A DNA stretch of 34,980 nt. Origin: an uncultured Gammaproteobacteria bacterium (lineage in GTDB: Bacteria > Patescibacteriota > Patescibacteriia > Magasanikbacterales > UBA922). Below are positions 6,916 to 34,980 of this stretch, piece after piece. The stretch spans positions 6,034-41,013 of the forward strand of contig CAZCHJ010000001.1 of the NCBI GenBank assembly GCA_964498735.1. Reading direction: 5' to 3'. Made by a program: the position numbers and the translations under genes. Within the stretch, counting starts at the first letter, position 1; each line of letters opens with the position of its first letter. The notes beneath the pieces are model-generated. The model searched no databases. It was given only the letters and a program-made list of their open reading frames with translations, and was not told where the DNA came from.

Positions 6916-7833
6916 TTACTCAATTCCCCATTCTTTTTTGAGCTTAGCGATTCCTTCTTCGAGTGTAATCGTCGGTTCCCAATTGAGTAAACTTTTTGCT
7001 TTCGTAATATCAGCACGAAAATATCTTCCATCTCCTGGTCTTGGTGGTACCATTACATGTTTACCCCCGATCATAGCAACAATCTCATTTACCGAATGTG
7101 GATTATTATTTCCAATATTAATCATCTCGCCTTTTCCAACACTATCAGATGACATGGCCAATATATTGGCACGCGCAACATCAGATACATGGGTGTAATC
7201 TCGGAAATACTCACCATCCCCACATACGGTCATTGGCTCACCATTTTTGACTTGTTCGAGGAATCTACCTATGACAAGTGCATATGCTCCCTTAGGATCT
7301 ACATGTGGCCCATACACATTAAAATACACCAGTGACACTGTTTCGAGTGAATATAATTCTGAGAATAGACGGCAATACTGTTCTCCGATAAATTTGTGTA
7401 ATGCATATGGTGCAATCGGTTTTTTTACAACCGTATCTTCTTTGAGCGGGAACATCTCACGGGGTTGATCGCCGTAGGTTGAACTCGATGAAGAGAATAC
7501 CACGCGTTTTACTTTTCGATCTCTTGCAGCGAGCAATACATTGAGTGTTCCATTCACATTCACATCATGTGTTTCTTGGGGATGGTCTACTGAATACGTA
7601 ACTCTCGGAAGGGCAGCTAAATGAAATACACCATCTACACCCTCCATTTCCCGAAGAAGCAGATCAAAGTCTCGAATATCGCCCTCAACATATTCAACTT
7701 CTTTCTGAATTCGTTCTTCTTTTCTTCCTCCTGAAAAATTATCAACTACCTTCACTTCGTGTCCTGCATTTTTTAATGCAATAACTAGATTGGTTCCAAT
7801 GAACCCGGCTCCACCGGTGACAAGATACTTCAT
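6916..7833 (-). CDS. NAD-dependent UDP-sugar 4-epimerase (GalE/WbpP-like extended SDR)
   Basis: 305 aa. MKYLVTGGAGFIGTN, SSSSTYG and YALHKFIGE (YxxxK). Lies directly downstream of UGDH, so the substrate may be a UDP-uronate, UDP-hexose or UDP-pentose. Specificity cannot be read from the sequence. Confidence 0.75.
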   Translation of the reverse strand: MKYLVTGGAGFIGTNLVIALKNAGHEVKVVDNFSGGRKEERIQKEVEYVEGDIRDFDLLLREMEGVDGVFHLAALPRVTYSVDHPQETHDVNVNGTLNVLLAARDRKVKRVVFSSSSSTYGDQPREMFPLKEDTVVKKPIAPYALHKFIGEQYCRLFSELYSLETVSLVYFNVYGPHVDPKGAYALVIGRFLEQVKNGEPMTVCGDGEYFRDYTHVSDVARANILAMSSDSVGKGEMINIGNNNPHSVNEIVAMIGGKHVMVPPRPGDGRYFRADITKAKSLLNWEPTITLEEGIAKLKKEWGIE

Positions 7834-7844
7834 AGGGATAATGT

Positions 7845-9233
7845 TTAAATTTTATTTTTTGATAAAAAAGGAGAACCCACAGCAATAATAGAAAAACCAG
7901 CTTCTACTAAATCAGCATATCGATGCTGTAAAATCCGCCGACCATCCATAATAAGCGGTCGTTTTTTTTGCGTCAACAGTGTATCGCCTAACTCTCGAAA
8001 CTGTGGCCAATCAGTCGCCAATATTACCACATCAGCATTTTCTAGTACTGATGTTTCTTGATCAGCATATTCAACTTTCTTATTATCTTTTGTTGCGATT
8101 TTAAAATTTTCCATTGCCACAGGATCATACACCGCAACAGTAGCCACATCTTCTTTGGTCAGGTGGAGTACAATATCGAGACTTGGTGAATTTCGTATAT
8201 CATTGGTCCCCTGCTTGAATGCAGCACCAAGTAACGCAATACGCTTACCCGACCATGAAACTCCTGCTTCTTTTACGGCACGCCCAAGAAATAGCTCTAG
8301 TTGTCGTTTATTAGCAAGATATGTTTCGTCAATCAGAGTTGCACCATACCCTGCGGTTTGTAGTTGATGAGATAGCGAACGCGCATCTTTGATAAAGCAA
8401 CTCCCTCCGGCATACAGACTATCATAGAGCCCCCACGTTCCAATACGTGGATCGGTTGTGAGTACTCTTCGAATATTCTCAAAATTCAAACCTGGAAATG
8501 CTTCGCAGGTTCGACCAATCACATCGAAACAAATGGCGAGCTTATTAAACAGATAAAAATTTGCAAGTAACTTTCCAGCTGCTGCTTCGTGTGGATTAAT
8601 TTCAATATACTCAATTCCTGACGCATCATAAAAGCGTCGGTATATTTTTCTCATGATTTCAAAATCTTTTTCACTTTGTGCACCAATTACAACTCGATCA
8701 GGATGCAGGGAACCCTGTATCGCTTTCCCCTCTACCAAAAATTCTGGATTAGATACTACGCCATATTCTTGTACCTCATGTTTTTTCATTATCTGCTCTG
8801 TTTGATCAATCATTGAGATAGGTACAGTGCTTTTGTTTACGATAACAATATATTTTGACTGCGTTCCTTCATTTCGTGTAGCGAGTGTTTGGGCTATTTT
8901 TTCTGCTCCCGCAAAATAATAAGAGAGATCACTCTCACCAGTCTCACCAATTTCTGGTGTTGGCAGACACATGAAAATAGCGTCACACGTATTAATAAAC
9001 TTTTCCACCACATCGTACGTTGACGTAAATTCAATACGTTCTTTATTGCGAATAATCAGGTCTGCAAGACCTTCTTCAAATAAACAAGACTGAATCTGAC
9101 TTCGGTCGCCACTATTTAATTTTTTTACTTTATTTTCATCGGTATCATATACTATTACTTGATGACCACTATCAGCCGAAACGGCGGCTGAGCACGCACC
9201 AACAAATCCTCCACCGATATACACAATGTTCAT
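7845..9233 (-). CDS. ugd: UDP-glucose 6-dehydrogenase
   Basis: The ORF-track entry 7845..9335 is trimmed to the internal ATG at 9233, which gives the canonical N-terminus [13 protein letters not shown] and an ATGA overlap with the upstream stop. Motifs [10 protein letters not shown], catalytic-Cys motif GGSCFIKD and [12 protein letters not shown]. Adjacent to UXS. Confidence 0.85.
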
Positions 9234-10168
9234 ATAATAGACGTAAAATACGTTATAGTCTCTTGTAATCCTTTTGTTATACCAACTTTTGGCGACCAGT
9301 GCAAGAGTTTTTTGGCTTTTGAAATATCCGGACACCGACGACGAGGATCATCGATTGGTAGTTTTTTAAATACCATTTTACTTTTTGATTGCGTAAGTGT
9401 AATTACCATTTCTGCCAACTCTTTCACCGTTCGCTCTTCTGGGTTACCCAGATTGATCGGACCTTGTACTTTTTTTGGAGAATTCATTAATTTGATAAGG
9501 CCATCTACCAGGTCGCTTACATAACAAAAACTTCGTGTCTGCTCACCGTTACCATATAATTCAAGTGGCTTATTTCCAAGTGCTTGTACGATAAAATTTG
9601 ATACCACTCGCCCATCTTCTTTTGACATACGAGGTCCATAGGTATTGAAAATTCGAGCAATTTTTATGTCCATTCCATGCATGCGGTAATAATCGAAGAA
9701 TAGTGTCTCCGCAACGCGTTTTCCTTCATCGTAACATGCTCGAGGACCAATCGGATTCACATTTCCACGATATTCTTCAATCTGTGGATGCGTCTCTGGA
9801 TCACCGTATACTTCTGAAGTAGAGGCTTGTAGGATTCGTGCTCCATGTTTACGTGCAAGTCCAAGTATATTGATTACACCTAGCGTACATGCCTTAATGG
9901 TGTGTACCTGATTCGACTGATAATGTATCGGTGACGCAGGACACGCAAGATTATATACCTGATCGATATGTCCCTTGATAAATAACGGATCAACAATGTC
10001 GTGTTCGATAAACTTAAAATTCTTATTTTTCAAAGCTTCTTTAATATTTTCTTTTGAACCGGTAAATAAATTATCAACCCCAATTACTCGATTTCCTTTT
10101 TGCAGTAATCGATCAACGAGATGCGAACCAATAAAACCCGCAGCTCCGGTTACAAGAATTGTTTTCAT
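9230..10168 (-). CDS. uxs: UDP-glucuronate decarboxylase (UDP-xylose synthase)
   Basis: 312 aa. [45 protein letters not shown] and [16 protein letters not shown] are all canonical UXS signatures. Confidence 0.85.
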
Positions 10169-11028
10169 ACAGTTGTATGTTTAAAGAAATTTACTAAGAG
10201 AGAGAAAAATAATTTTGTCTTAATTCCCAAAAAAATTACTGCATCAAAAAACATGTTGACATGAAAATGCTTCTGATAGTAAATCCACATTGCATCATAA
10301 AAATTAATCAACGATTGTGTTTTGCGTTTTTTGCTACTACTCCCACCAAAATGAATGATATGTGCCTCACTCACGTAAAAAATTTTCCAGCCATTATCCT
10401 GTATCTGTTTACACAAATCCAGATCTTCTCCATAAAAGAAAAACCGTTCATCAAAACCACCTGTTTTTTCAAACACTTCTTTTCGGAACATCATAGCTGC
10501 TCCTGAAATTGCTTCGACTGGTTCAGTCTTGTCAGGATTATCGCTGAATCGCTTATATGCTGTAGCTCGCCTACTATTTTTGAAAATTTTTGCAAATCCG
10601 AAAAGATGAAAGAAAGCATTTGCGGGGTTTGGCAAGTTTCTTCGACATGCGTGCTGGAATGTGAGGTCACGGTTGAGTAATTTTGGACCAACGCACACAA
10701 TCTCGGGATGCGTATCGAGAAATGTGACCAATTTGTTGATAGCGCCATCAAGTACGACGGTGTCACTATTGAGGAGAAAAATATATTCCCCACGAGCTAT
10801 TTTCATTCCTTGATTATTTGCTTTTCCAAAGCCTAGATTTTCTTTATTTTCAATTAATACCACTTGCGGAAATTCTTGTATTACCATTTTTACACTCTCG
10901 TCAGCAGAGTTATTGTCAATCAGAATTACTTCGTAATTGAAGCCCGTTGTTTCTTTAAAAACCGAAGTGAGTGCTTGTCGGGTTAGGTCACATGTATTCC
11001 AATTGACCACAATAATCGAGAGTTTCAT
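10165..11028 (-). CDS. GT2 glycosyltransferase (rhamnosyltransferase-like subgroup)
   Basis: 287 aa. [29 protein letters not shown] and LLNSDTVV (DxD equivalent). ATGA overlap with the uxs start. Confidence 0.8.
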
Positions 11029-11045
11029 ACTACCAAATCCTATAT

Positions 11046-11597
11046 CTATTTTGCCAATGTAATAAGTAGATTACATGCAGGAAATAAACGGGACAAAAAT
11101 GTAGACTCGTAAATTTTCTGCATACGGGGACTTACGTTGATCCACCGCTCAATCAGAGGGTGCAGAAAAAAAAGAACCGAACCTCTTTCAAAGCTTATTT
11201 TTGCAGATACACACTGTTTAAAGGCAAAATCAAAATAGTACCCTCTTCCATGCTGAGCAAATGAATCTTTTACAAAAAAATCAAACGTATTGATCGAAAA
11301 CATTTTTTTATGTGTCGGATCGATGAAGTTGTGTTTTGACGTAAAATGAGGAACACGAATTCGGATAACTCCTCCAGGTTTAAGTATTCGATGCAGATCC
11401 TTAATGATTGGAATATATTCGACATGTTCAAGAATGTCCTGACACAGGATTTCATCAAATTCATTGTCAGAAAAAGGAAGTGGCAGTTTCTCAATATCAT
11501 GAACCACATCAACGCCTGGTAGGGCCGAAATGTCTAAGTTTACCCAACCTTTCTGTATATTGGTACCACACCCTAGATTTAATTTTTTTGTTTCCAT
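11046..11597 (-). CDS. Class I SAM-dependent methyltransferase
   Basis: The ORF-track start at 11636 is a TTG. I prefer the ATG at 11597 (METKKLNLGCGTN). Motif I is LNLGCG and the post-I acidic residue sits in VNLDI. PGGVIRIRVP is typical of the Methyltransf_11-like fold. Confidence 0.75.
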   Translation of the reverse strand: METKKLNLGCGTNIQKGWVNLDISALPGVDVVHDIEKLPLPFSDNEFDEILCQDILEHVEYIPIIKDLHRILKPGGVIRIRVPHFTSKHNFIDPTHKKMFSINTFDFFVKDSFAQHGRGYYFDFAFKQCVSAKISFERGSVLFFLHPLIERWINVSPRMQKIYESTFLSRLFPACNLLITLAK

Positions 11598-11659
11598 ATT
11601 GGTTGGTATGGTATCGTAAAATACCCTATTTAGCAAGCCACTGGAAGAAAAGTTCCTTA

Positions 11660-11668: not shown

Positions 11669-11697
11669 ATAGGTGCTATACATGAAAATTAGTGCAT

Positions 11698-12834
11698 ATG
11701 AAGCAGATTACTATTGCAGTAAATACACGAATGCTTATTAGAGAGCGCCTCGATGGCATTGGTTATTTTGCATATCACACACTCAAAAGAATCACCGAAG
11801 CACATCCAGAAATTCAATTTTTCTTTATCTTTGACCGTCCATATGATTCTTCGTTTATTTTTTCTCACAACATTACACCCATAATCATCCCTCCTTCCAC
11901 TACCAATCCATTATATACGTATCTATGGAATACTCATTATCTTAGGACAACAGTGCAGAAGCTACATCCTGACCTATTCCTAGCTCCTGATGGTATTATT
12001 CCACTAGACTCCCCCATAAAACGTCTTTCGGTAATACATGATATTAATTTCCATCATTACCCGCATGATCTCAAATTTTTATCTTCCAAATTCTATAACT
12101 CTTATTTCCCTCGCTATGCGAAACAGGCTAGTCGCATTGCAACTGTTTCAGAATATAGTAAAAATGATTTAGCTAATACATACAACATTGATCCCACTAA
12201 AATCGATGTGGTCTATAATGGTGTCGGACCACAATTCAAACGTATTGACGAAAAAACAAAAATAGAAACACGGAATACATTTTCTAAAGGCAAAGAATAT
12301 TTTATTTTCATCGGATCGATCCATCCCAGAAAAAACATTACTCGTTTACTACGTGCTTTTGAGTTATTCAAAAAACGTACTGGGAGTGATACGAAATTAC
12401 TAATTGTTGGGCAATCTTTTTGGGGTAACCGTGAACTCACTAAGGCACTCGCTCACCTTACCTATAAAACAGACGTGGTTTTTACTGGACGCGTTGATGA
12501 GCGAGAGCTCAACAACTTACTTGGCTCAGCTCTATCACTTGTCCAACCTTCATATTTTGAAGGATTTTCCGTTCCCTTGATCGAAGCAATGTATGCAGAA
12601 GTTCCTATCATCTCTTCACAGACGACTGCGATGCCAGAAATTGCTGGTGATGCTGCTCTATATTTCGACCCTTTTGATATAGAGGATATGTCCACAGTTC
12701 TCAAAACAATCAGTGCTGATAAAAAATTAAGAGAGCAATTGATTGAAAAAGGAATCAAACAAAGAAGCAGATTTTCGTGGGACAATACTGCCAAAAAATT
12801 GTGGGAGTCAATAGAACGAACATTACATCAATAG
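11698..12834 (+). CDS. GT4 glycosyltransferase (mannosyltransferase-like)
   Basis: The ORF track starts at GTG 11692, and the ATG at 11698 gives MKQITIAVNTRML...GIGYF. C-terminal EGFSVPLIEAMYAEVPII E-x7-E motif. The 3' end overlaps the convergent gene by 7 nt. Confidence 0.85.
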   Translation: MKQITIAVNTRMLIRERLDGIGYFAYHTLKRITEAHPEIQFFFIFDRPYDSSFIFSHNITPIIIPPSTTNPLYTYLWNTHYLRTTVQKLHPDLFLAPDGIIPLDSPIKRLSVIHDINFHHYPHDLKFLSSKFYNSYFPRYAKQASRIATVSEYSKNDLANTYNIDPTKIDVVYNGVGPQFKRIDEKTKIETRNTFSKGKEYFIFIGSIHPRKNITRLLRAFELFKKRTGSDTKLLIVGQSFWGNRELTKALAHLTYKTDVVFTGRVDERELNNLLGSALSLVQPSYFEGFSVPLIEAMYAEVPIISSQTTAMPEIAGDAALYFDPFDIEDMSTVLKTISADKKLREQLIEKGIKQRSRFSWDNTAKKLWESIERTLHQ

Positions 12835-13790
12835 TGATGGTATTTTATTTTCCCTGACCACCGCTCACCAATTCCCACAATCCACCCACACATCTTCGCA
12901 ATATCTCCAACTGCAATAACCGGAATAAGCAACATATACCCGAATACTCGGATCATAGAGGGTAGTGGTTTACCAAATTCAAAGAATCGAAACCAAAATT
13001 TTTTCATATATATTGCGCCACACACCATAAGTATGAGTCCGAAAAGTAGCGGGTAATATACCATTCCATAGATGAGTCCGAGCAATCCAATGTATACACA
13101 AAATCGCACTATCTGTCTTTCGTAGAATAATTTTCCATGGGCATCACTCCGTGTATAATTATACAGTTGTCGCATAAATGCTCCCAAAGTATGTCTCGGC
13201 CTCCATGCAACTAACGTATTCTCAACATGTGCAATCTCTACTCCTTTTTTCTGTATCGTAATATCAAAAATTACATCCTCACAATACGGAATCCACTCAG
13301 GATACCCTCCAACGTCTGTCCAAAGTGATTTCACACATGCAAAAGAACGACTCGAAGGAAGCCAACTTTTTTTGAATTCCCGTTCTCGGGGAATAGTCGC
13401 TGCTGCAATAAGATACTGAATAAGATTATCAGTTTTCTTGAACCAAGGTTTAAAGGCCGTAGTAGATGCTTTTAAATCATCCTTTTCCAAAGGTTCAACA
13501 ATTTCTTTAAGCCATGTCTCGCCATATATACACCCAGCATCAGTAACCACAATGATCTCTCCCCTGGCCTGAGTTATTGCATAGTTACGTCCTGTAGCAA
13601 TATTTCCTTCTTTTTGGAATACGCGTATATTCTGCGATGCAATACTTTGCAACCACTCCCACGTACCGTCAGTCGACATACCGTCAACAACAATAATTTC
13701 ATCAGGATTTTTTTTCTGCTTCTGTATACTTTGAAACCACTCTTTGATATTGGTGAGCTCATTTTTTACCGTAATGACAAGAGAAATCAT
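12828..13790 (-). CDS. Membrane-anchored GT2 glycosyltransferase
   Basis: 320 aa. N-terminal GT-A (ISLVITVKNE, VVDGMSTDGT, VVTDAGC) followed by about 3 C-terminal TM helices (CVYIGLLGLIYGMVYYPLLFGLILMV..., GYMLLIPVIAVG). Confidence 0.75.
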   Translation of the reverse strand: MISLVITVKNELTNIKEWFQSIQKQKKNPDEIIVVDGMSTDGTWEWLQSIASQNIRVFQKEGNIATGRNYAITQARGEIIVVTDAGCIYGETWLKEIVEPLEKDDLKASTTAFKPWFKKTDNLIQYLIAAATIPREREFKKSWLPSSRSFACVKSLWTDVGGYPEWIPYCEDVIFDITIQKKGVEIAHVENTLVAWRPRHTLGAFMRQLYNYTRSDAHGKLFYERQIVRFCVYIGLLGLIYGMVYYPLLFGLILMVCGAIYMKKFWFRFFEFGKPLPSMIRVFGYMLLIPVIAVGDIAKMCGWIVGIGERWSGKIKYHHY

Positions 13791-13793
13791 AGT

Positions 13794-14648
13794 CTACACC
13801 TTACGCGCAATAATAAATGCCGTGTCTCGAACATTGATTGGAATAGAGATATTTTTGAGAAATGTCTGCGAGGACCACTCGGCGAGTTTTGAAAATAAAC
13901 GCATACCTGTCCAGCTGTATAGTAGACGGATGATGTATGGTATTGCAAAACGCTTCCCATCGTGCGAACTTTTTCTAATCTCAAAACCGTTCGCGACTAA
14001 AATTTCACATAAATTTTTATCTGAAAAATAGAAGAGGTGTTGTGGTGGAACAAAAGCATGCCATTTTTTTCCCCACACCTTAGCCCACAGGCTTCCCGCA
14101 TCTGGAGTAGTTATAACCAATAATCCATTGTCCCGAAGCAATGCATGTGCTTTGTGTATTGTCTCAATCGGATCTTTCACATGTTCGATGAGATCATACA
14201 TTGCAATCACGTCATATTTTTTTTCACCACCAATTGATTCAAAGGTATCTGTCGAAACAGCGAGTCCTTTTTCCTTCCCTCTCTCGACTGCATATGCCGA
14301 GAGGTCAATCCCACTTACACTCCACCCTCTTTGCTTCGCAAGTTCAAGAAAAAAACCAGTTGCACACCCCACTTCAAACAAATCTGAAGAAGTCTTGTTT
14401 GCGTGCTCCTGTTCTATTTTATCAAGATATCCTAGATACGTTTTTTTTGTTACTTGTTTATCTACCTCATAATCCATGTATCCATCAAGCGTTACGTCTC
14501 CGGTAAAATAACCCTCACCATAATACGGTGCAAGATCATCTGGTACGTTCTCAACCACCATCAATTTGCAATGCGCACATTTAAAAATCCGAAATTCTTT
14601 TTTTGTAAAATAAAAATTCATCTGGTTTTTGCAATTGACGCATGTCAT
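13794..14648 (-). CDS. SAM-dependent methyltransferase with N-terminal CxxC...CxxC zinc-ribbon
   Basis: 284 aa. CVNC(x19)CAHC at the N-terminus, motif I FEVGCATGFF and a DVIAMYDLIEHV segment. ATGA overlap with the upstream gene. Confidence 0.75.
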   Translation of the reverse strand: MTCVNCKNQMNFYFTKKEFRIFKCAHCKLMVVENVPDDLAPYYGEGYFTGDVTLDGYMDYEVDKQVTKKTYLGYLDKIEQEHANKTSSDLFEVGCATGFFLELAKQRGWSVSGIDLSAYAVERGKEKGLAVSTDTFESIGGEKKYDVIAMYDLIEHVKDPIETIHKAHALLRDNGLLVITTPDAGSLWAKVWGKKWHAFVPPQHLFYFSDKNLCEILVANGFEIRKSSHDGKRFAIPYIIRLLYSWTGMRLFSKLAEWSSQTFLKNISIPINVRDTAFIIARKV

Positions 14649-16892: not shown

Positions 16893-16893
16893 A

Positions 16894-26673: not shown

Positions 26674-27378
26674 TTATAGTTTTGTAAACTTATACTTAAT
26701 TAAATTCCAAAAAAACTCAAAGCATGTACTAAAACGTACATTTGATTTCCCAAACTTACGAGGTAAAAATGTAATTGGCAATTCCTTTACCCCTGAAGGA
26801 GTAATCAGTTTTGTTGCTTTTATCATGATTTCAGCATCAATAAACCAGTCATCTGAAACTAAGGGATTTAATTTTTTAAAAAAATCTATTCGAAATAACT
26901 TTGGTCCAGAATTAATATCACGTGTATATATTCCATATAAAACTCGGAATAAAAGTTGATATAGTTTACTCACCCACAATCTGAATGCCCCATCATATCG
27001 CTTTACTCGATATGTTTTCACAATTTCCACTTTTTGATCCTCAACAAAAGCTTGTATCATTTTCTCAACAATCGCAGCATCAAATTGATTATCACCCCAC
27101 ATATAGCCGACGATATCTCCCTGAAGGAGTCCTAATCCAGTGCGAATCCCATAACCGTATCCCTTATTTTCTGGGATGGTGTGATGGCGTACAAACGAAT
27201 ATTCTGACTCAACTTTTTTTATAACATCTGGTGTATTATCTTTAGAACCATTATCAATAATCATGACCTTAAGTTCAATTGGTACCAGACGTGCTCGAAC
27301 TTCTGATAACGTTCGCAGTACCAGAGGAATATTTCGAGCTTCATTGTAAGATAGAATAGCTATTTCAACACAGAGCAT
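26674..27378 (-). CDS. GT2 glycosyltransferase, Dpm1/GtrB/ArnC-like polyprenyl-phosphate sugar synthase candidate
   Basis: Trimmed from 27531 to the ATG at 27378 (MLCVEIAILSYNEARNIP). IIDNGSKDNT, ENKGYGYGIRTG and the acidic GDNQFD motif. There is a 1-nt gap to the upstream stop. Confidence 0.75.
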   Translation of the reverse strand: MLCVEIAILSYNEARNIPLVLRTLSEVRARLVPIELKVMIIDNGSKDNTPDVIKKVESEYSFVRHHTIPENKGYGYGIRTGLGLLQGDIVGYMWGDNQFDAAIVEKMIQAFVEDQKVEIVKTYRVKRYDGAFRLWVSKLYQLLFRVLYGIYTRDINSGPKLFRIDFFKKLNPLVSDDWFIDAEIMIKATKLITPSGVKELPITFLPRKFGKSNVRFSTCFEFFWNLIKYKFTKL

Positions 27379-27379
27379 A

Positions 27380-28039
27380 CTATGGTTTTGGTTTTGCTGT
27401 GAAGATAAACTGTACGGCACATAATTCTGGAAACATAAATAATACTCGTCGTCCAAAATGCGCTGCTCGACGTAAAAATCGTTCGATATATCCAGCAGAA
27501 GGACGATCAAGAAGTATTTCAAATCCAGCACCCTCGATCATTTCTCGCATAGTTTTTCTGGTGAAAAATACCATATGAGTTCGATCCATAATCCCTGAAT
27601 CAGTCATATCCCACTTACCCCACAACAATTGCCAACGAATCGAATAATGTGCAACATTGGGTAAGGAAATCACACACGTACCTTCTGGTTTCAGATATTT
27701 TCTCAAATTCTTGAGTACCTCATGTGGATGAGTCATATGTTCAAGAACATCTCCGAGTAAGATATGATCGAACTGTTGACCATCTAGGTCATTATCACGA
27801 ATAATTTCCTCTCCAGTTTTATTAAATAATTTAGCATACCCGATCGGCAATGCGTCATCATACAATTCTTTCACTGGTTCAATTCCCCACACTTCACATT
27901 CTTTTTCATGAATCAAGTACTCCCCCAAATAACCACTCGCGGTACCTACCTCAAGTACTTTAGTTTTTTCGTTTATCTGATTTAACAGTAGCATGTGGGT
28001 ATTTACCGGATTTGGGTCAAATCTATAATTTCTTTTCAT
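27380..28039 (-). CDS. Class I SAM-dependent methyltransferase
   Basis: Trimmed to the ATG at 28039 (MKRNYRFDPNPV...). Motif I VLEVGTASGYLG, FDHILLGDVLEHM and PEGTCVISLPN. A 17-nt overlap with the upstream gene remains. Confidence 0.75.
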   Translation of the reverse strand: MKRNYRFDPNPVNTHMLLLNQINEKTKVLEVGTASGYLGEYLIHEKECEVWGIEPVKELYDDALPIGYAKLFNKTGEEIIRDNDLDGQQFDHILLGDVLEHMTHPHEVLKNLRKYLKPEGTCVISLPNVAHYSIRWQLLWGKWDMTDSGIMDRTHMVFFTRKTMREMIEGAGFEILLDRPSAGYIERFLRRAAHFGRRVLFMFPELCAVQFIFTAKPKP

Positions 28040-28826
28040 AGAAAAATTGCGATATTTTAAGCGGAAATAACAGAATAAAATTTTTAAGTGACTCCAATAC
28101 ACCCATTTCTTTCACATATTTTCCTGGATTTTCTTCAAATACTTCAGGAATTTTTTCTTCAATTTTTTTACCAATCAAGAAATAAGTTAATCTTCTCTTG
28201 AACTTTCTGCTTGATCCAGAGCTATATTCCTGATCATCGATTGAGGATCTCCTCAGGTGAGAAAGATGCCAAAATTTTTCTTGTAAAAAAACAACTTTTT
28301 CTTTTTCAAATACCTTTCTTCCTTCATTATCACATATGGCATCATGATTATATGAACCGCTCCAATGTAATCCTTTATTATTTTTGAAAAGACGTGGAGT
28401 TGCGTGTACAACTTTTCCTCGTAGCGTATAGGCTCCTTTTTTTGAATAATGATAGACATCTCCTACGCACAAATAGAATGGCGCAATAAAACATTCAGTA
28501 TCCTCCGTACTCATCACTCTCATTATCTCCTCCATACCTCGTCTAGACCATACCTCATCCCCATCAAGAATCATAAACCAATCACTCATTGTTCGTTCAA
28601 TCATTTCCTGTCTTAATTCTGTATGTCTTTTTTGGTCACATTCACCTTTTTCTTCAAAAATAATATTCGGATAATGTACCTGCAATTCTTTTATGATACT
28701 AACTGTTTTATCACTCGATCCTGTATCGAAGACTATAATTTTGTCTGCAAACGCAACAACAGAGGTGAGTGCATACCAAATATAATTTTCTTCATTTTTT
28801 ACAATACAGTGTACAGCAAGCTTCAT
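28023..28826 (-). CDS. GT2 glycosyltransferase
   Basis: 267 aa. LAVHCIVKNEENYI, IVFDTGSSDKT and ILDGDEVW (DxD). Overall similar in layout to the GT2 at 19936..20754. Confidence 0.8.
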   Translation of the reverse strand: MKLAVHCIVKNEENYIWYALTSVVAFADKIIVFDTGSSDKTVSIIKELQVHYPNIIFEEKGECDQKRHTELRQEMIERTMSDWFMILDGDEVWSRRGMEEIMRVMSTEDTECFIAPFYLCVGDVYHYSKKGAYTLRGKVVHATPRLFKNNKGLHWSGSYNHDAICDNEGRKVFEKEKVVFLQEKFWHLSHLRRSSIDDQEYSSGSSRKFKRRLTYFLIGKKIEEKIPEVFEENPGKYVKEMGVLESLKNFILLFPLKISQFFYEKKL

Positions 28827-28837
28827 ATTACTAGTTA

Positions 28838-30139
28838 CTAGCGTACGATAATTTCTTTATTCTTCAAAAGATAATATGCACATCCTATATTATAGAATAC
28901 TGCAACAATAATACCGAGCATGAATGTATAGCCGGCGCCTATAACTCCAAATCGCGGGATAAGGAGTATAGTACCAACCACATTCACTATCAATTGCACC
29001 ACACCAGAGAAAGCCATCATGTAGGTACGGTTATATACTGTAATTACTAATGAGAAAGGCACTGTTATTAGATTGAGTACTAGACTGTATGCTAATACTA
29101 GATACACTGACAATGACTCCGTGTACCCTTGTCCAAAAAAGAAGGTAATCAAATATTGAGAAGGAAATACCAGAATACTCAGTATCACTATTATTAACAA
29201 AATCCATTTGAGTGTACGTTTTAAAAATATTTTTACATCCGTTACTGACGCAAGACTGTTAATTCTCGGAGATAAAACTGCAGTAATTGATTGTGCGATA
29301 TACGGATAGAGCTGAATCAATTGATATGCAGCCGCGTAAATTGCAACCTCTTGGAGACCCAGGAATCTGCTAATCATTATCTGATCGACCCTGCTTGAAA
29401 CAATGGAAAATAAAGACCAAATGGTCAGCCACATACTAAATTTGGCAAGCTGTGCATGTATATTTTTTTTAACTTCCTGGTCGATTTCCACTTTAAGAAA
29501 ATTTTTTGGCAATACATGAAAGCTTGCAAAAAATAAAATCCACGGAACAAATATATAAACGGCGAGATAGAAGTATATATTATCCACACCAAACATCATG
29601 AGCACCGCGATCAGACCCAATCTAAGCGTTCCTTTGAGTGTCTGTAGTCCAGCATTATAGAAAAATCTCTGTGCTGCCTGTAAGTAAGTATTAATAAAAC
29701 CAAGAAAAATCACACCACCGACCCCAATAAAAGAAAAGATTAGATAACCAACCATTCCTTCTTGCTTTAGTAGCACGTGAGATAATGGGTAGGATAGCAT
29801 AATACCGCCACAGGTTATTATTGCTGCAATACTTACTCGCCATCTCCAGATTGTTTTTACCAATTGTTTTAATTTATCCAACTCTTTGTGTGCAATATAA
29901 AATGGTGCAAACCGGAGTAGCCCCCCATTCAACCCCAGGTCAGACATTTCAGAAACAGTACTAAGAACTAAAATAGAAAGCGTAAAAACAGCGAACCATT
30001 CTTTTGAAAAATTTCGTCCCAAAATAACACTGATTAAAAATAATGATGCGCCGTTAACCAATGAACTTATGTACGTATACGTTGCATCTCGTAGATATTT
30101 TTTTTCTTTCAATTTTTTGATGTATGAAATAATACCCAT
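28838..30139 (-). CDS. wzx: Wzx-type oligosaccharide flippase (MOP/PST family)
   Basis: 433 aa with about 12 TM helices. The N-terminal basic segment followed by LVNGASLFLISVILGRNFSKEWFAVF is typical of polysaccharide-biosynthesis (PST) flippases. Confidence 0.75.
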   Translation of the reverse strand: MGIISYIKKLKEKKYLRDATYTYISSLVNGASLFLISVILGRNFSKEWFAVFTLSILVLSTVSEMSDLGLNGGLLRFAPFYIAHKELDKLKQLVKTIWRWRVSIAAIITCGGIMLSYPLSHVLLKQEGMVGYLIFSFIGVGGVIFLGFINTYLQAAQRFFYNAGLQTLKGTLRLGLIAVLMMFGVDNIYFYLAVYIFVPWILFFASFHVLPKNFLKVEIDQEVKKNIHAQLAKFSMWLTIWSLFSIVSSRVDQIMISRFLGLQEVAIYAAAYQLIQLYPYIAQSITAVLSPRINSLASVTDVKIFLKRTLKWILLIIVILSILVFPSQYLITFFFGQGYTESLSVYLVLAYSLVLNLITVPFSLVITVYNRTYMMAFSGVVQLIVNVVGTILLIPRFGVIGAGYTFMLGIIVAVFYNIGCAYYLLKNKEIIVR

Positions 30140-30141
30140 AT

Positions 30142-32394
30142 CTATTCTTTAATTTCTCTTCCATTGGTGGCATCATTCCCCATCACACCAACACTTTCAA
30201 CTGTGGAAATATATTTTTTCGATACAAACCGATTCAGTGTGTACTCTACCGGATAATCGAGCAATAGATATGGAATTCCTTTAGCAAGAGATTTGAGCCA
30301 TATTTTTTTTGCATTGTTGGAAAAACTATATAATCGAGTAGAGACGAAATCAGGTCTGATATAATAAAACACCATGCCTTCTCTATTCCATTCCTTCAAA
30401 TTGAATTCGTGAGTTAGTACGTATCTTCCACTGATTTTCCAATATTGCCTTGCTCGTGGTAACTTGGATCCTGCAGCAAGAAGCATACTCACCTCTCCCA
30501 AACTTTTGAGACTACTATCGCATGCACGACGAACCAAGAATCTATCTCCGACATATACATATTCATCTACCTGGTTTTTCAAATCAAAAGGTGCCGCCTC
30601 TAGTCCAGCTTCAATACACACAATACGTGCGCCTGGTATTTTTTCTCTGATCGATCGAATTGTTGCAAGCGTCTGTGCATACCGCTCTTCGGGAGAATAG
30701 ACTGAACGCGTACTAGCATATGATAATGCTTTTTGTTTGTGATAGATAACCGAGGTTATGCATACACAATATTCATACGGCACTTCTTCTATCATCTTTT
30801 TCTTACCCAAGAATATGAGTTCTATCAAAAAACCAAAAGGAATTGCAATACACATTTTATAAACCTGACGAATCAAAAAACGTACAATATTTTTCTTTTC
30901 AAGATTTTTTTCTTTTTGTATTGCAAATCCAGATGCACGCCATTCCAAAATAATTGAAAATGGATAAAGAAAAACTATTCCCACCATTGCATAGTAAAAC
31001 CACAATTCACTTCCTGCATCTGTGTGTGTGAAGAACCAATCAACAAGCCAGAGTAGATAATATATAAAAGGACTCAGTGTAATCCAACGTGTGATCCGGA
31101 GTAGATATGGATTTTGGTAGATGCTATACAAGACAATTCCTAATGGTAGAAACCAGAGTCCATACCAAGGTAGAAATGATTTTTGCCAGACTAACAAATA
31201 GACTAACAAAAAAACAAACATGCCTGCGATATAGTCCCCTGTTTCCCAAACCATTTTTTTTCTGAGTATAGAAAAAACCTTTTTGAAATATGGAAATAAT
31301 ACATATGCAAATACAGTAAACACTGCTACATGCACTCCTCGTGTCAATATCCAGTGTGCATTGCTGCCGAATACACTTTCAAATAATGGTTTCAGTGAAA
31401 AATAAATCACTGCAAACAGACTCATGACTGCCCATTTTGATTGAATCACCACTGACTGAAACACCTCAGGACCAATCCAATATTTGTGCCAAACTAGCGT
31501 TGTTATTACCACACCAAGCACCACACCCCCCACAGTTCTCCATAATTGCTTTTTCCAATTTTCTTTCGTAATTGATTGCCACCACCATAGGAGAAAAAAA
31601 GGCGCAATAAGAGCGGGAACAAATTTAATCCAAATTCCAATTACTAAAAGTGGAATCACCCATATCCATTTTTTCTTGTGTGCGGCTATGATCGCCTCGA
31701 GTACACAGATCAGCCACAATACATCAAAATGTCCATTCACTACTGTTTCGAATACGAGTAACGGCTGTAGCAAAAATACTGCATATATTAATTTTTTATC
31801 TACTTTTCCATCAAGTAGAGATATTAAACGGTAGATACTATAGCCACACAATACCACACTAGTTGCCATAAGTAACTTCCACATCACCATAAACCACACA
31901 CTTTCATTGTTTGAAATTTGGTATAAACCGCTAAAAGCGTGAGCAATGATAGGTCCGTAGGAGAAACCAATTATGTCGCTCATTGGTACTGGATATACAA
32001 ATTCTTTTTCCATCTGCCAATGATCGTGATAAATATTCAATCCCTGATTTTGTGCCCGTCCTGCGGCAAAATAATAGCTCATGTCGCTTGAGCCAAAAGG
32101 AACCACCAGAATCGCGCTTATAAAAAGAAACGCTATAAGCGCTGATATTTTTTTGAATTTCGGTGATATATCCATCTTTTTCAAGATACTCCACAATTTC
32201 CAACCAAACAATGCAAATACACTAGTCATCACTATGACAATGAGTAGGCTTACTATTTTTTCATTTACCGAGAGCACTGCCGGACACAACAATGTACTTG
32301 ATTGAAAGAAACATTTTTTTTCGAGTATCAAAGAATACGATGTAATAGAAAATCCACCGAGTATAAGCCAAGTAATTATATAGAGGGATATCAT
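30142..32394 (-). CDS. Fusion protein: N-terminal GT-C membrane glycosyltransferase (GT87/DUF2029/PimE-like) and C-terminal ~230 aa uncharacterised globular domain
   Basis: Trimmed from 32484 to the ATG at 32394 (MISLYIITW...), giving an ATGA overlap with the upstream stop. About 520 aa are polytopic, with SSDMSYYF in an early loop, SYGPIIAHAF and ETVVNGHFDVLWL motifs reminiscent of DUF2029-type mannosyltransferases. The C-terminal soluble domain starts near VPYEYCVCITSVIY...STRSVYSPEERYAQTLATIRSIREKIPGARIVCIEAG. Confidence 0.65.
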   Translation of the reverse strand: MISLYIITWLILGGFSITSYSLILEKKCFFQSSTLLCPAVLSVNEKIVSLLIVIVMTSVFALFGWKLWSILKKMDISPKFKKISALIAFLFISAILVVPFGSSDMSYYFAAGRAQNQGLNIYHDHWQMEKEFVYPVPMSDIIGFSYGPIIAHAFSGLYQISNNESVWFMVMWKLLMATSVVLCGYSIYRLISLLDGKVDKKLIYAVFLLQPLLVFETVVNGHFDVLWLICVLEAIIAAHKKKWIWVIPLLVIGIWIKFVPALIAPFFLLWWWQSITKENWKKQLWRTVGGVVLGVVITTLVWHKYWIGPEVFQSVVIQSKWAVMSLFAVIYFSLKPLFESVFGSNAHWILTRGVHVAVFTVFAYVLFPYFKKVFSILRKKMVWETGDYIAGMFVFLLVYLLVWQKSFLPWYGLWFLPLGIVLYSIYQNPYLLRITRWITLSPFIYYLLWLVDWFFTHTDAGSELWFYYAMVGIVFLYPFSIILEWRASGFAIQKEKNLEKKNIVRFLIRQVYKMCIAIPFGFLIELIFLGKKKMIEEVPYEYCVCITSVIYHKQKALSYASTRSVYSPEERYAQTLATIRSIREKIPGARIVCIEAGLEAAPFDLKNQVDEYVYVGDRFLVRRACDSSLKSLGEVSMLLAAGSKLPRARQYWKISGRYVLTHEFNLKEWNREGMVFYYIRPDFVSTRLYSFSNNAKKIWLKSLAKGIPYLLLDYPVEYTLNRFVSKKYISTVESVGVMGNDATNGREIKE

Positions 32395-33701
32395 ACACTC
32401 TCGTATGTCGATAAGAATATTTCGAATGTCTCTATCACATATTCCAACATCTCCTTCGTAAGACCGGGATACACACCAATCCAAAATGTTTGTTTCATAA
32501 TCGTATCAGCGTTCTTCAAATCTCCTATAACTCTATATTCAATATCTTGATTCGTGAAGTATGGTTGTCTGAGTAAATTTCCTGAAAATAAAAATCTCGT
32601 ACCAATTTTCTTTTCTTGTAAGAATTGTACTATTTCATCACGGCTGAATGGTGCATCGTCCTTTACCGTAAGTAAAAATCCAAACCAGCTTGGTCGTGCT
32701 TCTTTTTGCCAAGAAGGCAGCAAAAAATATTTCTCAAATTTTTTCAATCCTTCATAGAGAATATTAAAATTCTCCCTTCTTTTTCCTACGAAAGAATCAA
32801 GTTTTGCAAATTGGGCAAGACCGAGAGCAGCCTGAATATCAGTTGCTTTGAGGTTATACCCCATTTCGGAATAAATATATTTATGATCATAACCGTAGGG
32901 TAACTCACCCAATTGCCAACAGAAACGCTTCTGGCACGTGTTGTCCTTACCTGTTTCACACCAACAGTCACGCCCCCAATCTCTAATTGATTCAATAATC
33001 TTATAGAGTCGTGAATTATTGGTGAATACCATTCCCCCTTCAGCGGTAGTGATGTGGTGTGCAGGATAAAAACTGCACGTTGCTATATGTCCAAATGTTC
33101 CTGTTTTCTTTCCATTGAATGTTGCACCCAACGCATCACAGTTGTCTTCAATAAGCCACAAATCATGTTTATCACATAATTCTCTAATTGCCCCAAGATC
33201 AAATGGATTGCCCAGTGTATGTGCAATCATTATTGCTCGAGTTTTTGATGAAAGTGCTTTTTGTATCTCCTTAATATTTGCGTTATACGTTCCTAGATCA
33301 ACATCAACAAACACCGGGACAAGACCATTTTGTATAATTGGATTTACAGTACTAGGGAAACCTGCAGCTACCGTGATTACCTCGTCCCCCTTTTTTAATC
33401 TTTTTTCTCCGAGCTTCACCGAAGTAAGTGCGGTCAACGCGATTAGATTTGCGGAAGATCCAGAATTTACATAACATCCGTACTTCACTCCCAACCATTG
33501 TGCAAGACGATGCTCGAACATGGCACTATACTTACCATCAGTCCACCAACCTTCAAGTATTGACTCAACGGCGATTGTAATTTCTTCAGTATCAAAAACT
33601 TTCCCAGATACAGGAACCGCAGAAACTCCGGGTACAAATTCTTTTTTTGGAAAACGAAAATTATAATCTTCTACGAGCAATTGTTTCAACTTCTCATCCA
33701 T
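32391..33701 (-). CDS. rfbH: PMP-dependent NDP-6-deoxy-4-hexulose 3-dehydrase (E1/RfbH/DdhC-type, DegT family)
   Basis: 436 aa in the DegT/DnrJ/EryC1 fold (VNSGSSANL, IEDNCDALG). The Schiff-base Lys position is His (SFYPAHHITTAEGG). Cys188-x57-Cys246-x1-Cys248-x7-Cys256 matches the [2Fe-2S] spacing described for Yersinia E1. Confidence 0.8.
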   Translation of the reverse strand: MDEKLKQLLVEDYNFRFPKKEFVPGVSAVPVSGKVFDTEEITIAVESILEGWWTDGKYSAMFEHRLAQWLGVKYGCYVNSGSSANLIALTALTSVKLGEKRLKKGDEVITVAAGFPSTVNPIIQNGLVPVFVDVDLGTYNANIKEIQKALSSKTRAIMIAHTLGNPFDLGAIRELCDKHDLWLIEDNCDALGATFNGKKTGTFGHIATCSFYPAHHITTAEGGMVFTNNSRLYKIIESIRDWGRDCWCETGKDNTCQKRFCWQLGELPYGYDHKYIYSEMGYNLKATDIQAALGLAQFAKLDSFVGKRRENFNILYEGLKKFEKYFLLPSWQKEARPSWFGFLLTVKDDAPFSRDEIVQFLQEKKIGTRFLFSGNLLRQPYFTNQDIEYRVIGDLKNADTIMKQTFWIGVYPGLTKEMLEYVIETFEIFLSTYESV

Positions 33702-33883
33702 ATACGTACATCAAATTATCTTTTTGAATTCTTTTACTGCTTTGGGTATTACAAAATTTTTATGAAAACTGATGGTATTTTTTGGAAGTTTGGAAACTGG
33801 AAACTAATTTCCCCATCGAAATCTTATTTTTGTGCCTTTTTTAAGCCTTTTTTTGCACATTTTTTATCCCAAAATACTCTCGT

Positions 33884-33912
33884 ATTCTACCATTTTAGAT
33901 AGAAAATGGCAA
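33884..33912 (-). promoter_or_regulatory. Candidate sigma70-type promoter of the 18-gene minus-strand operon
   Basis: On the minus strand: TTGCCA (33912-33907), a 17-nt spacer, then TGG-TAGAAT (extended -10, hexamer 33889-33884). This would give a ~175-nt A-rich leader before the rfbH-like ATG at 33701. Sequence match only. Confidence 0.4.
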
Positions 33913-33970
33913 CTCTCCAGTGACTATTGATTTTCAAGATATCTTATCTCTTTATATTTCAATAGATACC

Positions 33971-33993
33971 ACGTAATTTTAGATATATTACGT
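33971..33993 (-). terminator. Weak hairpin immediately after the acyltransferase stop
   Basis: acgtaat (33971-33977) and attacgt (33987-33993) form a 7-bp stem with a 9-nt loop, starting 1 nt past the TAG at 33995-33997. There is no clean U-tract after it. Confidence 0.25.
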
Positions 33994-33994
33994 A

Positions 33995-34980
33995 CTATGG
34001 TAACTCTTGTGCCAAATCTTTTTTCTTTGATTTCAATTTAAAAAATGGAGCTTCAATTGCATAATAAGTTATCGTTGAAACTACAAGAGTAGCCACTACA
34101 TCTAAGATGATTTTTGTATGATTTGTTACCAATAGTTTATCCACTCTTTCAAAAACTACGGGATGCCAGACATAAATACTAAAACTGATTTTGGCGATAA
34201 ATAAAATGGGTCTAGTTGTCAGCACATACGATAAGACAGTTCTATCATCGCCCAGAAACGAAAGAATAAGGAGTATCGTAATCGTGCCCAAAAGTATCGG
34301 CGCCAAAACATACGAGATGGTGGGGGCAAATTCTAGATCATAAAAACGTACAAACAAAAAGAATAGTAATACGAAAAGAAACTGGAATCTTGCACTGCCC
34401 AATTTTTCTATTACATTTTTCTTATATATATACAAGTAACTACCGAGCATTCCTAATGCAAAAAAATCAAAATCTGCAGGTGTGAATCTCAATAATTGCA
34501 TAGTTGGATTTTTCACAACAAATACTAGGATGATTCTATATATAATCCCGAATGCGAGTGGGGCCAAAAAAAGAACCATTTTTTTATATTTATAAAAAAA
34601 GTAATAAAAAACTGGGAGAAGTATATAAAAGTGCATTTCAACCACCAGTGACCAGTAGACTGGATTAATCGTTAAGATCCCCCCTCCACTACTACTTTTT
34701 ATCTCACGGATAAAGAGCATGTTATAGATAATCGATTTGAGCCCAGGAATGTTTAAAAAAACGTCAGATTTTAGAATCAATGTGATCACCAGTATCGAGA
34801 AGTAGTACAAGGGCAAAATTCTGAGTAATCTCTTTTTTGTGTATTTCCATATAGCTTTTTTATCCAACGGTTCATCGTTCTTGCATAATTGATAAAAGAG
34901 TAGAAAACCACTTAATACAAAAAATACACTCACACCGACTGTTCCTCCAAAATATACGAGTCTCTGCCAATTGAAAAAAG
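33995..34980 (-). CDS. Membrane O-acyltransferase, acyltransferase family 3 (OafA/WecH-like), 5'-truncated by the window edge
   Basis: The reading frame stays open upstream of the annotated GTG (34933) to the window end (...FFNWQRLVYFGGTVGVSVFFVLSGFLL). The FFVLSGFLL motif and about 9 further TM helices are typical of acyltransferase_3. Confidence 0.8.
   Translation of the reverse strand, partial: FFNWQRLVYFGGTVGVSVFFVLSGFLLFYQLCKNDEPLDKKAIWKYTKKRLLRILPLYYFSILVITLILKSDVFLNIPGLKSIIYNMLFIREIKSSSGGGILTINPVYWSLVVEMHFYILLPVFYYFFYKYKKMVLFLAPLAFGIIYRIILVFVVKNPTMQLLRFTPADFDFFALGMLGSYLYIYKKNVIEKLGSARFQFLFVLLFFLFVRFYDLEFAPTISYVLAPILLGTITILLILSFLGDDRTVLSYVLTTRPILFIAKISFSIYVWHPVVFERVDKLLVTNHTKIILDVVATLVVSTITYYAIEAPFFKLKSKKKDLAQELP

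Follow-up and report, generated by a model that had tools for sequence, protein, structure and literature searches.

We analyzed a 34,980-bp stretch of metagenomic DNA (hereafter, the window) that holds a dense locus for glycan synthesis. The window covers nearly all of the 35,656-bp ENA contig ERZ17987696 NODE_470, which stops 676 nt past the window, and has a GC content of ~0.37. It is filled throughout by 31 open reading frames (ORFs), 29 of them on the − strand, and no tRNA genes were found in it. ORF starts were corrected from the gene calls of the source contig and from homologue lengths, giving revised bounds for the genes at 30142–32394, 26674–27378, 27380–28039, and 7845–9233. Genes are referred to below by their lower coordinate. 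The locus is a real, coherent glycan-assembly island that extends over positions 79–34980, i.e., the entire window, and is longer than the span 6916–34980 given in an original prediction for this DNA.

Gene content of the island

The island combines an initiating polyprenyl glycosylphosphotransferase (PGT) and a single Wzx flippase with four candidate polyprenyl-phosphate-sugar synthases of glycosyltransferase (GT) family 2, a small DUF2304 protein, and four predicted GT-C enzymes:

1254–1595, − strand: small DUF2304 membrane protein, candidate activator of the GacJ/Rv3632/WpsB type (PF10066, 68 bits; 113 aa, three transmembrane (TM) helices)
1599–2261, − strand: GT2, PpgS/GacI-like polyprenyl-phosphate sugar synthase candidate
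5371–6795, + strand: PGT of the WbaP/WcaJ type, initiating enzyme (Bac_transf and CoA_binding_3; TIGR03025)
14645–16198, − strand: predicted GT-C of the PMT_2 family, 517 aa (~9 TM helices; 'DE' motif after TM1)
16200–16940, − strand: Dpm1/DPMS-like polyprenyl-phosphate-sugar synthase candidate, adjacent upstream of 14645
16894–18093, − strand: predicted GT-C of the PMT_2 family, 399 aa ('DTD' motif after TM1)
18077–18769, − strand: Dpm1/DPMS-like polyprenyl-phosphate-sugar synthase candidate, partner of 16894
23941–25770, − strand: orphan polytopic membrane protein with a predicted GT-C-like fold, 609 aa
26674–27378, − strand: ArnC-like GT2, polyprenyl-phosphate-sugar synthase candidate, first gene of a three-gene cassette (234-aa gene call)
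28838–30139, − strand: Wzx/MOP-family flippase (Polysacc_synt)
30142–32394, − strand: two-domain protein of 750 aa, predicted MptA_B/PimE-like GT-C with a C-terminal GT-A-fold domain

Pfam assigns eight GT2 proteins (1599, 10165, 12828, 16200, 18077, 19936, 26674, and 28023), four GT4 proteins (79, 11692 on the + strand, 18766, and 20744), three S-adenosylmethionine (SAM) methyltransferases (11046, 13794, and 27380), and five extended short-chain dehydrogenases/reductases (SDRs). It also identifies the Bac_transf PGT, the Wzx/Polysacc_synt protein, an AsnB protein, a DegT-family protein, a UDP-glucose 6-dehydrogenase (UGDH), an Acyl_transf_3 protein, an S8 subtilase, and the DUF2304 protein. 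Key assignments pass curated thresholds. Specifically, the DegT-family protein (32391–33701) scores 701.3 bits against the RfbH equivalog NF011936 in NCBIfam (cut-off 423), the PGT (5371–6795, +) scores 189 bits for Bac_transf and 344 bits for TIGR03025 (cut-off 295.55), UGDH (7845–9233) scores 285 against the nucleotide-sugar dehydrogenase model TIGR03026 (cut-off 189.8), and Wzx (28838–30139), with ~11 TM helices, scores 68 bits for PF01943 (cut-off 28.2). The product of 22057–23937 is 626 aa long, in agreement with the contig's own gene call. Pfam and NCBIfam thus bear out the inventory first proposed for this DNA, namely eight GT2 and four GT4 enzymes, a WbaP-type PGT, Wzx, three methyltransferases, an amidotransferase, a 3-dehydrase, and an O-acyltransferase. 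From the proposed UGDH/UXS pair, UGDH is confirmed, whereas UXS is a candidate only and passes no curated cut-off.

Candidate synthases and GT-C proteins

The product of 16200 aligns with Pyrococcus DPMS (PfDPMS, 5mlz) over residues 14–236, across the catalytic domain (E = 1.3e-53), and that of 18077 matches DPMS with E = 2.7e-25, followed by ArnC and GtrB. AglJ is the best NCBIfam match of both, and 18077 also matches ArnC. The 26674 protein aligns over its full length with ArnC (E = 6e-9) and also matches DPMS (E = 4e-6). For 1599, PpgS is the best NCBIfam match (176.5 bits) and the alignments to ArnC and DPMS are full-length; its score lies below the 370-bit cut-off of the PpgS equivalog (NF058614), which makes it PpgS-like only. 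By homology, these four GT2s are supported as candidate polyprenyl-phosphate-sugar synthases of the DPMS/GtrB/ArnC/GacI type, in keeping with the four Dpm1-like enzymes first predicted here and with their separation from cytoplasmic GT2s. Three of the remaining four GT2s have no DPMS, ArnC, or PpgS matches; the fourth, 12828–13790, may be a fifth lipid-phosphate-sugar synthase, as it carries C-terminal TM helices and aligns weakly but full-length with DPMS (E = 4e-6). The four candidates align pairwise over their full length at 25–28% identity, and a recent duplication was rejected as their origin at this level of identity. In two other GT2s, only the first ~130 aa at the N terminus resemble protein glycosyltransferases: the best solved-structure and NCBIfam matches of 28023 are SunS and GmaR, and the best match of 19936 is SunS.

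The DUF2304 gene (1254–1595) starts 3 nt after the GT2 gene 1599–2261, an arrangement that reproduces the order of GacI/GacJ and PpgS/Rv3632. GacJ, a DUF2304 protein of 113 aa, stimulates GacI (bioRxiv 10.1101/180810), and PpgS is found with the DUF2304 protein Rv3632 in mycobacteria (PMC3485146).

All four proteins named as GT-Cs in the original prediction are supported as such, while its ranking of them, with 14645 and 30142 as confident and 16894 and 23941 as candidates, is partly reversed. Both 14645 and 16894 exceed the PMT_2 gathering score of 26.1 bits (44.3 and 39.4 bits, respectively) and carry acidic motifs just past TM1, 'MDET' in 14645 and 'SDTDS' in 16894. BLAST detects no similarity between these two PMT_2 proteins. 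Because neither matches a PDB chain at E ≤ 1 in a sequence search, their GT-C status is read from Pfam. The products of 30142 and 23941, as well as the GT-A-like domain, have no match in our local Pfam copy even at E ≤ 10. This copy lacks the PF26314 model (MptA_B_family), to which precomputed annotations assign the 750-aa product of 30142 and all 19 of its homologues.

In an AlphaFold2 (AF2) model of the 30142 protein (pLDDT 84), the N-terminal 490 residues superpose on PimE (9dm5; Foldseek probability 1.00, TM-score 0.65) and also on ALG6 and PIG-U; D104 is invariant. Residues 540–750 match retaining GT-A enzymes, glycogenin/GT8 and GT6, in Foldseek. This ~220-aa GT-A-like domain (window positions 30142–~30800, −) belongs to no Pfam family and lacks a strict DxD motif, and contains the invariant motifs R..QT, KSLGE, K(I)SGRY, TRxY, and Y..E. 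A conserved 'RQxYR...PF' helix with Lys-rich flanks on both sides precedes it. The domain is encoded by its own ORF of 250–275 aa in 13 relatives (e.g., L019:19655–20470 and L013:4273–5085, where L numbers denote related loci), and its fusion to the GT-C is seen only in the window's closest relatives. Judged from the model, the C-terminal domain of 30142 is an undescribed GT-A-fold family.

The 609-aa product of 23941 has no Pfam or NCBIfam match. Its AF2 model is confident (pLDDT 86.8, pTM 0.88), and its high-probability PDB matches in Foldseek are all GT-C enzymes (DPY19, EmbA/B/C, ALG3, and Pmt1), at TM-scores of only 0.3–0.4; D24 and E134 are conserved. A profile search found 16 representatives of the family among 1.84e9 proteins, and no relative turned up when genome contigs were scanned with the 609-aa protein. 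The model supports 23941 as a rare, orphan GT-C-like family that is recognizable by fold only. Either 23941 or 30142 was considered as a missing Wzy polymerase and rejected, as both models resemble GT-C_A proteins (PimE, ALG6, DPY19, Emb, and ALG3) and not WaaL/SEDS/RodA. Profiles and models together support four GT-C proteins: two PMT_2 proteins, one MptA_B/PimE-like, and one orphan. HMM searches back the GT-C calls for 14645 and 16894 (PMT_2) and for 30142 (PF26314), and 23941 is called by fold.

Three synthase/GT-C pairs are adjacent or near-adjacent in the window. Genes 18077 and 16894, in this order, share 17 nt; a single nucleotide separates 16200 from the next gene, 14645; and 26674, the SDR gene 25767, and 23941 form a three-gene run. 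This trio is present in the related loci L002, L003, and L005 and cleanly absent in L004, so it is gained or lost as a unit. In L013 (10382–12253), a single 623-aa GT2+PMT_2 protein is orthologous to both 18077 (47% identity) and 16894 (55% identity) and provides a model in which synthase and transferase are joined in one polypeptide. The three GT2–GT-C adjacencies, the L013 fusion, and the GacI/GacJ-type pair make extensive extracytoplasmic elaboration, as originally proposed, a reasonable inference. The 19 genes running from 33701 down to 12828 have intergenic gaps of −47 to +11 nt, consistent with one operon from RfbH to 12828. Co-transcription of the glycan genes had been predicted; the tight packing agrees with it and is its only basis, and two genes lie on the opposite strand, giving two strand switches. 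A promoter and terminator scan of the window performed no better than on shuffled sequence.

The other genes of the window are:

79–1254, − strand: GT4 glycosyltransferase, overlapping the GT2/DUF2304 pair by 1 nt at its downstream end, kept in a relative's module (Glyco_trans_1_4, Glycos_transf_1)
2267–3289, − strand: extended SDR of the NDP-sugar dehydratase/epimerase family (Pfam, NCBIfam)
3306–5306, − strand: S8 subtilase, membrane-anchored or secreted (Peptidase_S8), beside the PGT in GCA_964394405.1 too
6916–7833, − strand: SDR epimerase, GalE/TviC-like (Pfam, NCBIfam)
7845–9233, − strand: UGDH, ~462 aa (three UDPG_MGDP_dh domains; homologues 458–466 aa)
9230–10168, − strand: SDR, candidate UDP-glucuronic acid decarboxylase (UXS/ArnA-C-like)
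10165–11028, − strand: GT2 of the ordinary cytoplasmic type
11046–11636, − strand: SAM methyltransferase (Pfam)
11692–12834, + strand: GT4 glycosyltransferase (Pfam)
12828–13790, − strand: GT2 with C-terminal TM helices, possible fifth synthase (match to PfDPMS)
13794–14648, − strand: SAM methyltransferase (Pfam)
18766–19932, − strand: GT4 glycosyltransferase (Pfam)
19936–20754, − strand: GT2 with a SunS-like N-terminal domain (Pfam, structure match)
20744–22084, − strand: GT4 glycosyltransferase (Pfam)
22057–23937, − strand: AsnB-type glutamine amidotransferase, putatively for uronic-acid amidation (Pfam, NCBIfam)
25767–26663, − strand: extended SDR inside the three-gene cassette (Pfam, NCBIfam)
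27380–28039, − strand: SAM methyltransferase, 219 aa (Pfam, gene call)
28023–28826, − strand: GT2 with a SunS-like N-terminal domain, part of the conserved core (Pfam, structure match, synteny)
32391–33701, − strand: RfbH, CDP-6-deoxy-4-hexulose 3-dehydrase of the 3,6-dideoxyhexose pathway
33995–34980, − strand: Acyl_transf_3 O-acyltransferase (PF01757, 86.6 bits), which runs past the window edge with its 5′ end cut (full gene on the contig, 370 aa)

The best match of the S8 subtilase is mycosin-like. A hydrophobic segment lies at its N terminus, and its C-terminal ~300 aa match no assigned domain. The gene sits inside a conserved glycan module and is kept there in a relative. Its product was considered as a Ser/Thr-rich glycosylation target and rejected, as the protein has no such region.

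Related loci and host lineage

A GTDB-wide scan recovered 23 loci with relatives of the MptA_B-type protein. Syntenic loci occur in ~20 metagenome-assembled genomes (MAGs), none of them characterized, and no characterized locus with this gene order was found. The closest loci, L002–L005, keep the order RfbH, GT-C/GT-A fusion, Wzx, GT2, methyltransferase, then AsnB, GT4, GT2, GT4, GT2, and PMT_2, with 50–87% protein identity between syntenic genes. Recurrence was counted over 22 related loci. A DPMS-like GT2 lies ≤1.1 kb upstream of the MptA_B GT-C in 14 of them, and RfbH takes this position in six, the same configuration as in the window. Wzx lies downstream of the MptA_B GT-C in 18 loci, a GT-A-like protein is present in 16, and a SunS-like GT2 in 15. 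At the head of this core, 12 of the 22 loci encode upstream a Wzy_C+TPR membrane protein of ~690 aa (e.g., L002:1–20 and L019:6153–8213), which is likely the missing polymerase, ligase, or O-oligosaccharyltransferase (O-OTase); in the window's contig, it would lie past the contig end.

Upstream of RfbH, L002 (1808–3537) and L003 carry a transketolase split into a pair of N and C halves, along with an NTP-transferase and SDRs, suggesting a branched or modified CDP-dideoxyhexose pathway. Genes of this type would fall beyond the end of the window's contig.

The informative taxonomic labels of the related loci are Magasanikbacteria, Paceibacterota, and Patescibacteria, with one Udaeobacter, and all named top matches of UGDH (65–68% identity) belong to Parcubacteria, Magasanikbacteria, or Patescibacteria. 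The host is therefore most likely an uncultured, ultra-small bacterium of the Patescibacteria, or candidate phyla radiation (CPR), as judged from these gene matches. Fifteen third-party annotation (TPA) MAG records (CAY/CAZ accession prefixes) labelled 'uncultured Gammaproteobacteria bacterium' carry the same locus as Patescibacteria-labelled MAGs. The Gammaproteobacteria labels of these 15 MAGs look unreliable.

The module at 79–9335, comprising UGDH, an SDR, the PGT (opposite strand), the S8 protease, a second SDR, GT2, DUF2304, and GT4, is conserved in L029 (GCA_964394405.1, CAYMVY010000001.1, 575–597 kb). There it stands beside a different, NeuB/nonulosonic-acid-type cluster, suggesting that the initiation module is conserved and that the glycan cassette beside it can be swapped. 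GC is slightly higher in this module (0.39–0.42 at 1–9 kb) than elsewhere in the window (0.34–0.39). A rival reading is that the window is a mosaic of independent neighboring systems: a conserved PGT/UGDH/GacIJ-like module, a repeat-unit cassette that can be swapped, and GT2/GT-C pairs unrelated to both that would modify other envelope polymers (teichoic-acid-like polymers or lipids). The L029 neighborhood, the difference in GC, the two strand switches, and the coming and going of GT2/GT-C pairs and of the trio cassette among relatives all fit this idea. However, the 19 overlapping same-direction genes interleave GT2/GT-C pairs with GT4, GT2, AsnB, and Wzx, and this interleaved order is retained in L002–L005 at the protein identities given above; we consider a mosaic quite improbable.

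Pathway model and known glycosylation systems

It is fairly probable that the window is one large cell-surface glycan assembly island, in which interior assembly is followed by a Wzx flip and by external decoration through lipid-phosphate sugars and GT-C enzymes. This proposal builds on what is directly supported: the families and folds of the proteins, the neighboring positions of their genes, conserved synteny, and a gene fusion in a relative. Nucleotide sugars would be supplied by UGDH, several SDR epimerases/decarboxylases, RfbH, and the AsnB-type amidotransferase. The WbaP/WcaJ-type PGT would prime undecaprenyl phosphate, and a second chain, linked through a monophosphate, may be started by the GacI/GacJ-like GT2+DUF2304 pair. 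On the cytoplasmic face, four GT4s, three to four ordinary GT2s, three methyltransferases, and the O-acyltransferase would elaborate an oligosaccharide that likely contains uronic acids, perhaps in amidated form, together with a 3,6-dideoxyhexose, a pentose or 4-epimer, and methyl and acyl substituents. The single Wzx would then flip this oligosaccharide. In parallel, four DPMS/ArnC/PpgS-like GT2s would load single sugars onto polyprenyl phosphate, and on the outer face the four GT-Cs would move these lipid-phosphate sugars to the exported glycan, or to its protein or cell-wall acceptor. The donors and acceptors, the final acceptor among them, the sequence of events, and the membrane side assigned to each event are our inferences.

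Several observations weigh against this model. None of the 31 window proteins matches Wzy_C or Wzz in Pfam, nor is there a match to LCP, O-OTase, or GtrA-type (PF04138) flippase families among them. The Wzx/PGT repeat-unit pathway first proposed for the locus thus keeps its PGT and Wzx, and its Wzy, Wzz, and ligase were not found in the window; any polymerization is hypothetical. A single Wzx would need to accept several substrates unless an unlinked flippase takes part; by analogy with GacK, Wzx could serve lipid-phosphate-sugar flipping. Equivalog cut-offs in NCBIfam are passed by none of the four synthase candidates, and no TM segments are predicted in any of the four. Counted in the window by itself, GT2/GT-C adjacency is only modestly enriched (permutation P ~0.04). 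Because the 79–9335 module flanks a different cluster in a relative, the PGT may not be dedicated to the window cassette. Finally, the host placement rests on best matches of horizontally transferable sugar-metabolism genes, and the contig carries no marker genes.

The missing Wzy and Wzz in the window, set against the Wzy_C+TPR protein of the relatives, also fit a glycoprotein product. Here, an undecaprenyl-diphosphate-linked oligosaccharide would be passed unpolymerized to a pilin, S-layer, or other envelope protein by a Wzy_C-type O-OTase just outside the window, and the PMT_2 GT-Cs would O-glycosylate proteins from lipid-phosphate sugars as Pmt and PgfM do. CPR cells are rich in pili and S-layers, PMT_2 is the superfamily of protein O-mannosyltransferases, and PgfS-type matches occur among the GT2s. 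The top matches of 28023 (SunS and GmaR) and 19936 (SunS) to protein glycosyltransferases are at most a faint hint in this direction, as the similarity is limited to the generic N-terminal GT2 fold. Moreover, no Ser/Thr-rich target is encoded in the window, S8 protease included, and PMT_2 also covers GacL, CsdD/F, and GtsC, which act on polysaccharides (PMC8035078). A glycoprotein product is, in our view, unlikely.

For the island model, the combination of a Wzx-like flippase, lipid-phosphate sugars, and GT-C enzymes has ample precedent: it is also standard in archaeal Agl pathways, and mycobacterial Ppm1/PimE/MptA-B likewise use lipid-phosphate-sugar/GT-C steps. A close parallel comes from the multi-component systems of Gram-positive bacteria, in which a GT-A/GT2 enzyme makes a C55-phosphate sugar for a GT-C that is often a PMT_2 protein, in combination, where present, with a Wzx-dependent repeat unit (PMC8035078). 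GtsABC acts on the Wzx/Wzy-made secondary cell-wall polysaccharide of B. anthracis, and GacIJKL of S. pyogenes and CsdAB, CsdCD, and CsdEF of L. lactis are transmembrane glycosylation systems (PMC8035078). As in the window, these systems can include a three-TM DUF2304 activator (GacJ, with 113 aa, is the size of the 1254–1595 product; bioRxiv 10.1101/180810). They also accept a Wzx-type flippase as an alternative to GtrA. Unlike them, the window has four synthase candidates and four GT-Cs of four unrelated families in one locus, has no GtrA, rhamnan, or ABC-transporter backbone (no ABC transporter is encoded in it), has synthases without TM anchors, and comes from a CPR-like host. By analogy, the logic of the window is best explained as the multi-component transmembrane glycosylation of Gram-positive cell-wall polysaccharides, in unusually high copy within a single operon.

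The lactococcal rhamnose-rich cell-wall polysaccharide and polysaccharide pellicle (PSP) system (WpsA/B, WpsC-F, WpsG, and WpsH/J) likewise unites in one cluster a primer of the GacI/J type, GTs that act in the cytoplasm, a flippase resembling Wzx, and GT-Cs, and it is a characterized case in which repeat units assembled in the cytoplasm meet GT-C steps outside the membrane. In the PSP pathway, cytoplasmic elongation of the GacI/J-type primer is followed by flipping through a Wzx-like protein and by the action of GT-C enzymes (PMC10821137). The lactococcal system differs in gene order and content, with the window adding a WbaP-type PGT, UGDH/RfbH/AsnB, and three more DPMS-like/GT-C pairs. This precedent opens a dual-chain alternative, in which 1599/1254 would prime an undecaprenyl-monophosphate oligosaccharide that cytoplasmic GTs extend and Wzx flips, and one or more GT-Cs would polymerize it or transfer it en bloc onto the PGT-started chain, so that some GT-Cs would handle oligosaccharides and not single side-chain sugars. 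The GacI/J homologues WpsA/WpsB, the Wzx-like WpsG, and the GT-C proteins WpsH/WpsJ act in this way (PMC10821137). In the window, the conserved module holds both the PGT and the GacI/J-like pair, whose DUF2304 gene overlaps GT4 by 1 nt, no Wzy was found, and the MptA_B-type GT-C adjoins Wzx, as it does in most relatives. However, three GT-Cs have their own nearby DPMS-like GT2, a better fit to monosaccharide donors; any likeness to WpsH/WpsJ is one of role; and the Wzy_C+TPR protein of the relatives could be the polymerase or ligase. We regard such a dual chain as a doubtful alternative to the island model.

Other systems share parts of this machinery. As in mycobacteria and corynebacteria, the window has an MptA_B_family member (30142) whose model superposes on PimE, Ppm1/DPMS-like proteins (16200 and 18077), and a PpgS-like GT2 followed by DUF2304, recalling PpgS-Rv3632-Rv3779 (PMC3485146). 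In contrast to mycobacteria, its host is not an actinomycete (Actinomycetota), the PpgS score of 1599 is below the equivalog cut-off, and its GT-C has a GT-A-like domain fused to it and lies beside Wzx and RfbH. The archaeal Agl pathway (AglJ/AglD, the Wzx-like AglR, and AglS, a GT-C using dolichyl-phosphate mannose) provides the top NCBIfam match of 16200 and 18077 and the same lipid-phosphate-sugar, Wzx-like, and external GT-C logic. Unlike it, the window has no AglB/STT3 oligosaccharyltransferase, its PGT is of the bacterial Bac_transf type, and the scores lie far below the equivalog cut-offs. Wzx/Wzy O-antigen and capsule loci have in common with the window a PGT, Wzx, GT2/GT4 sets, RfbH-type genes, UGDH, an AsnB-like protein, an acyltransferase, and tight unidirectional packing, whereas the window has no Wzy, Wzz, or WaaL and contains four in-cluster GT-Cs. 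The likely CPR host is monoderm-like without lipopolysaccharide, unlike O-antigen hosts.

Because Wzx assembly combined with lipid-phosphate-sugar/GT-C steps is established (PMC8035078, PMC10821137, bioRxiv 10.1101/180810), the claim that the architecture matches no characterized locus was overstated: its hybrid logic is found in GacIJKL, lactococcal Wps/Csd, and GtsABC. Novelty is confined to the host lineage, to the precise arrangement and set of genes, and to the density, with four GT-C families packed into one operon. If the Gram-positive parallel is correct, an extracytoplasmic glycosylation toolkit of this type would be heavily used outside Bacillota and Actinomycetota. A search of the full-text literature for CPR/Patescibacteria surface-glycan loci found nothing specific and none characterized.

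Episymbiotic CPR cells depend on surface contact with their hosts. The most original parts of the locus are the orphan GT-C cassette, the GT-C/GT-A-like fusion, the L013 GT2+PMT_2 fusion, and the recurrent core in many Patescibacteria-labelled MAGs. Leads from this analysis are the list of candidate synthase/GT-C pairs, the orphan GT-C family with its 16 representative clusters in 1.84 billion proteins, and the GT-A-like family linked to MptA_B GT-Cs. The core shared by ~20 MAGs consists of the Wzy_C+TPR protein, a DPMS-like GT2, a methyltransferase, the MptA_B-type GT-C, the GT-A-like protein, Wzx, and the SunS-like GT2. Tentatively, and with little confidence, this core may represent an undescribed envelope glycoconjugate pathway typical of Patescibacteria, in which the PimE/MptA-like GT-C would extend or polymerize a Wzx-flipped primer outside the cell from polyprenyl-phosphate sugars, in a lipomannan-like manner. 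The window's lineage would have expanded it with the GT-C/GT-A fusion, the orphan GT-C family, and two more GT2/GT-C pairs.

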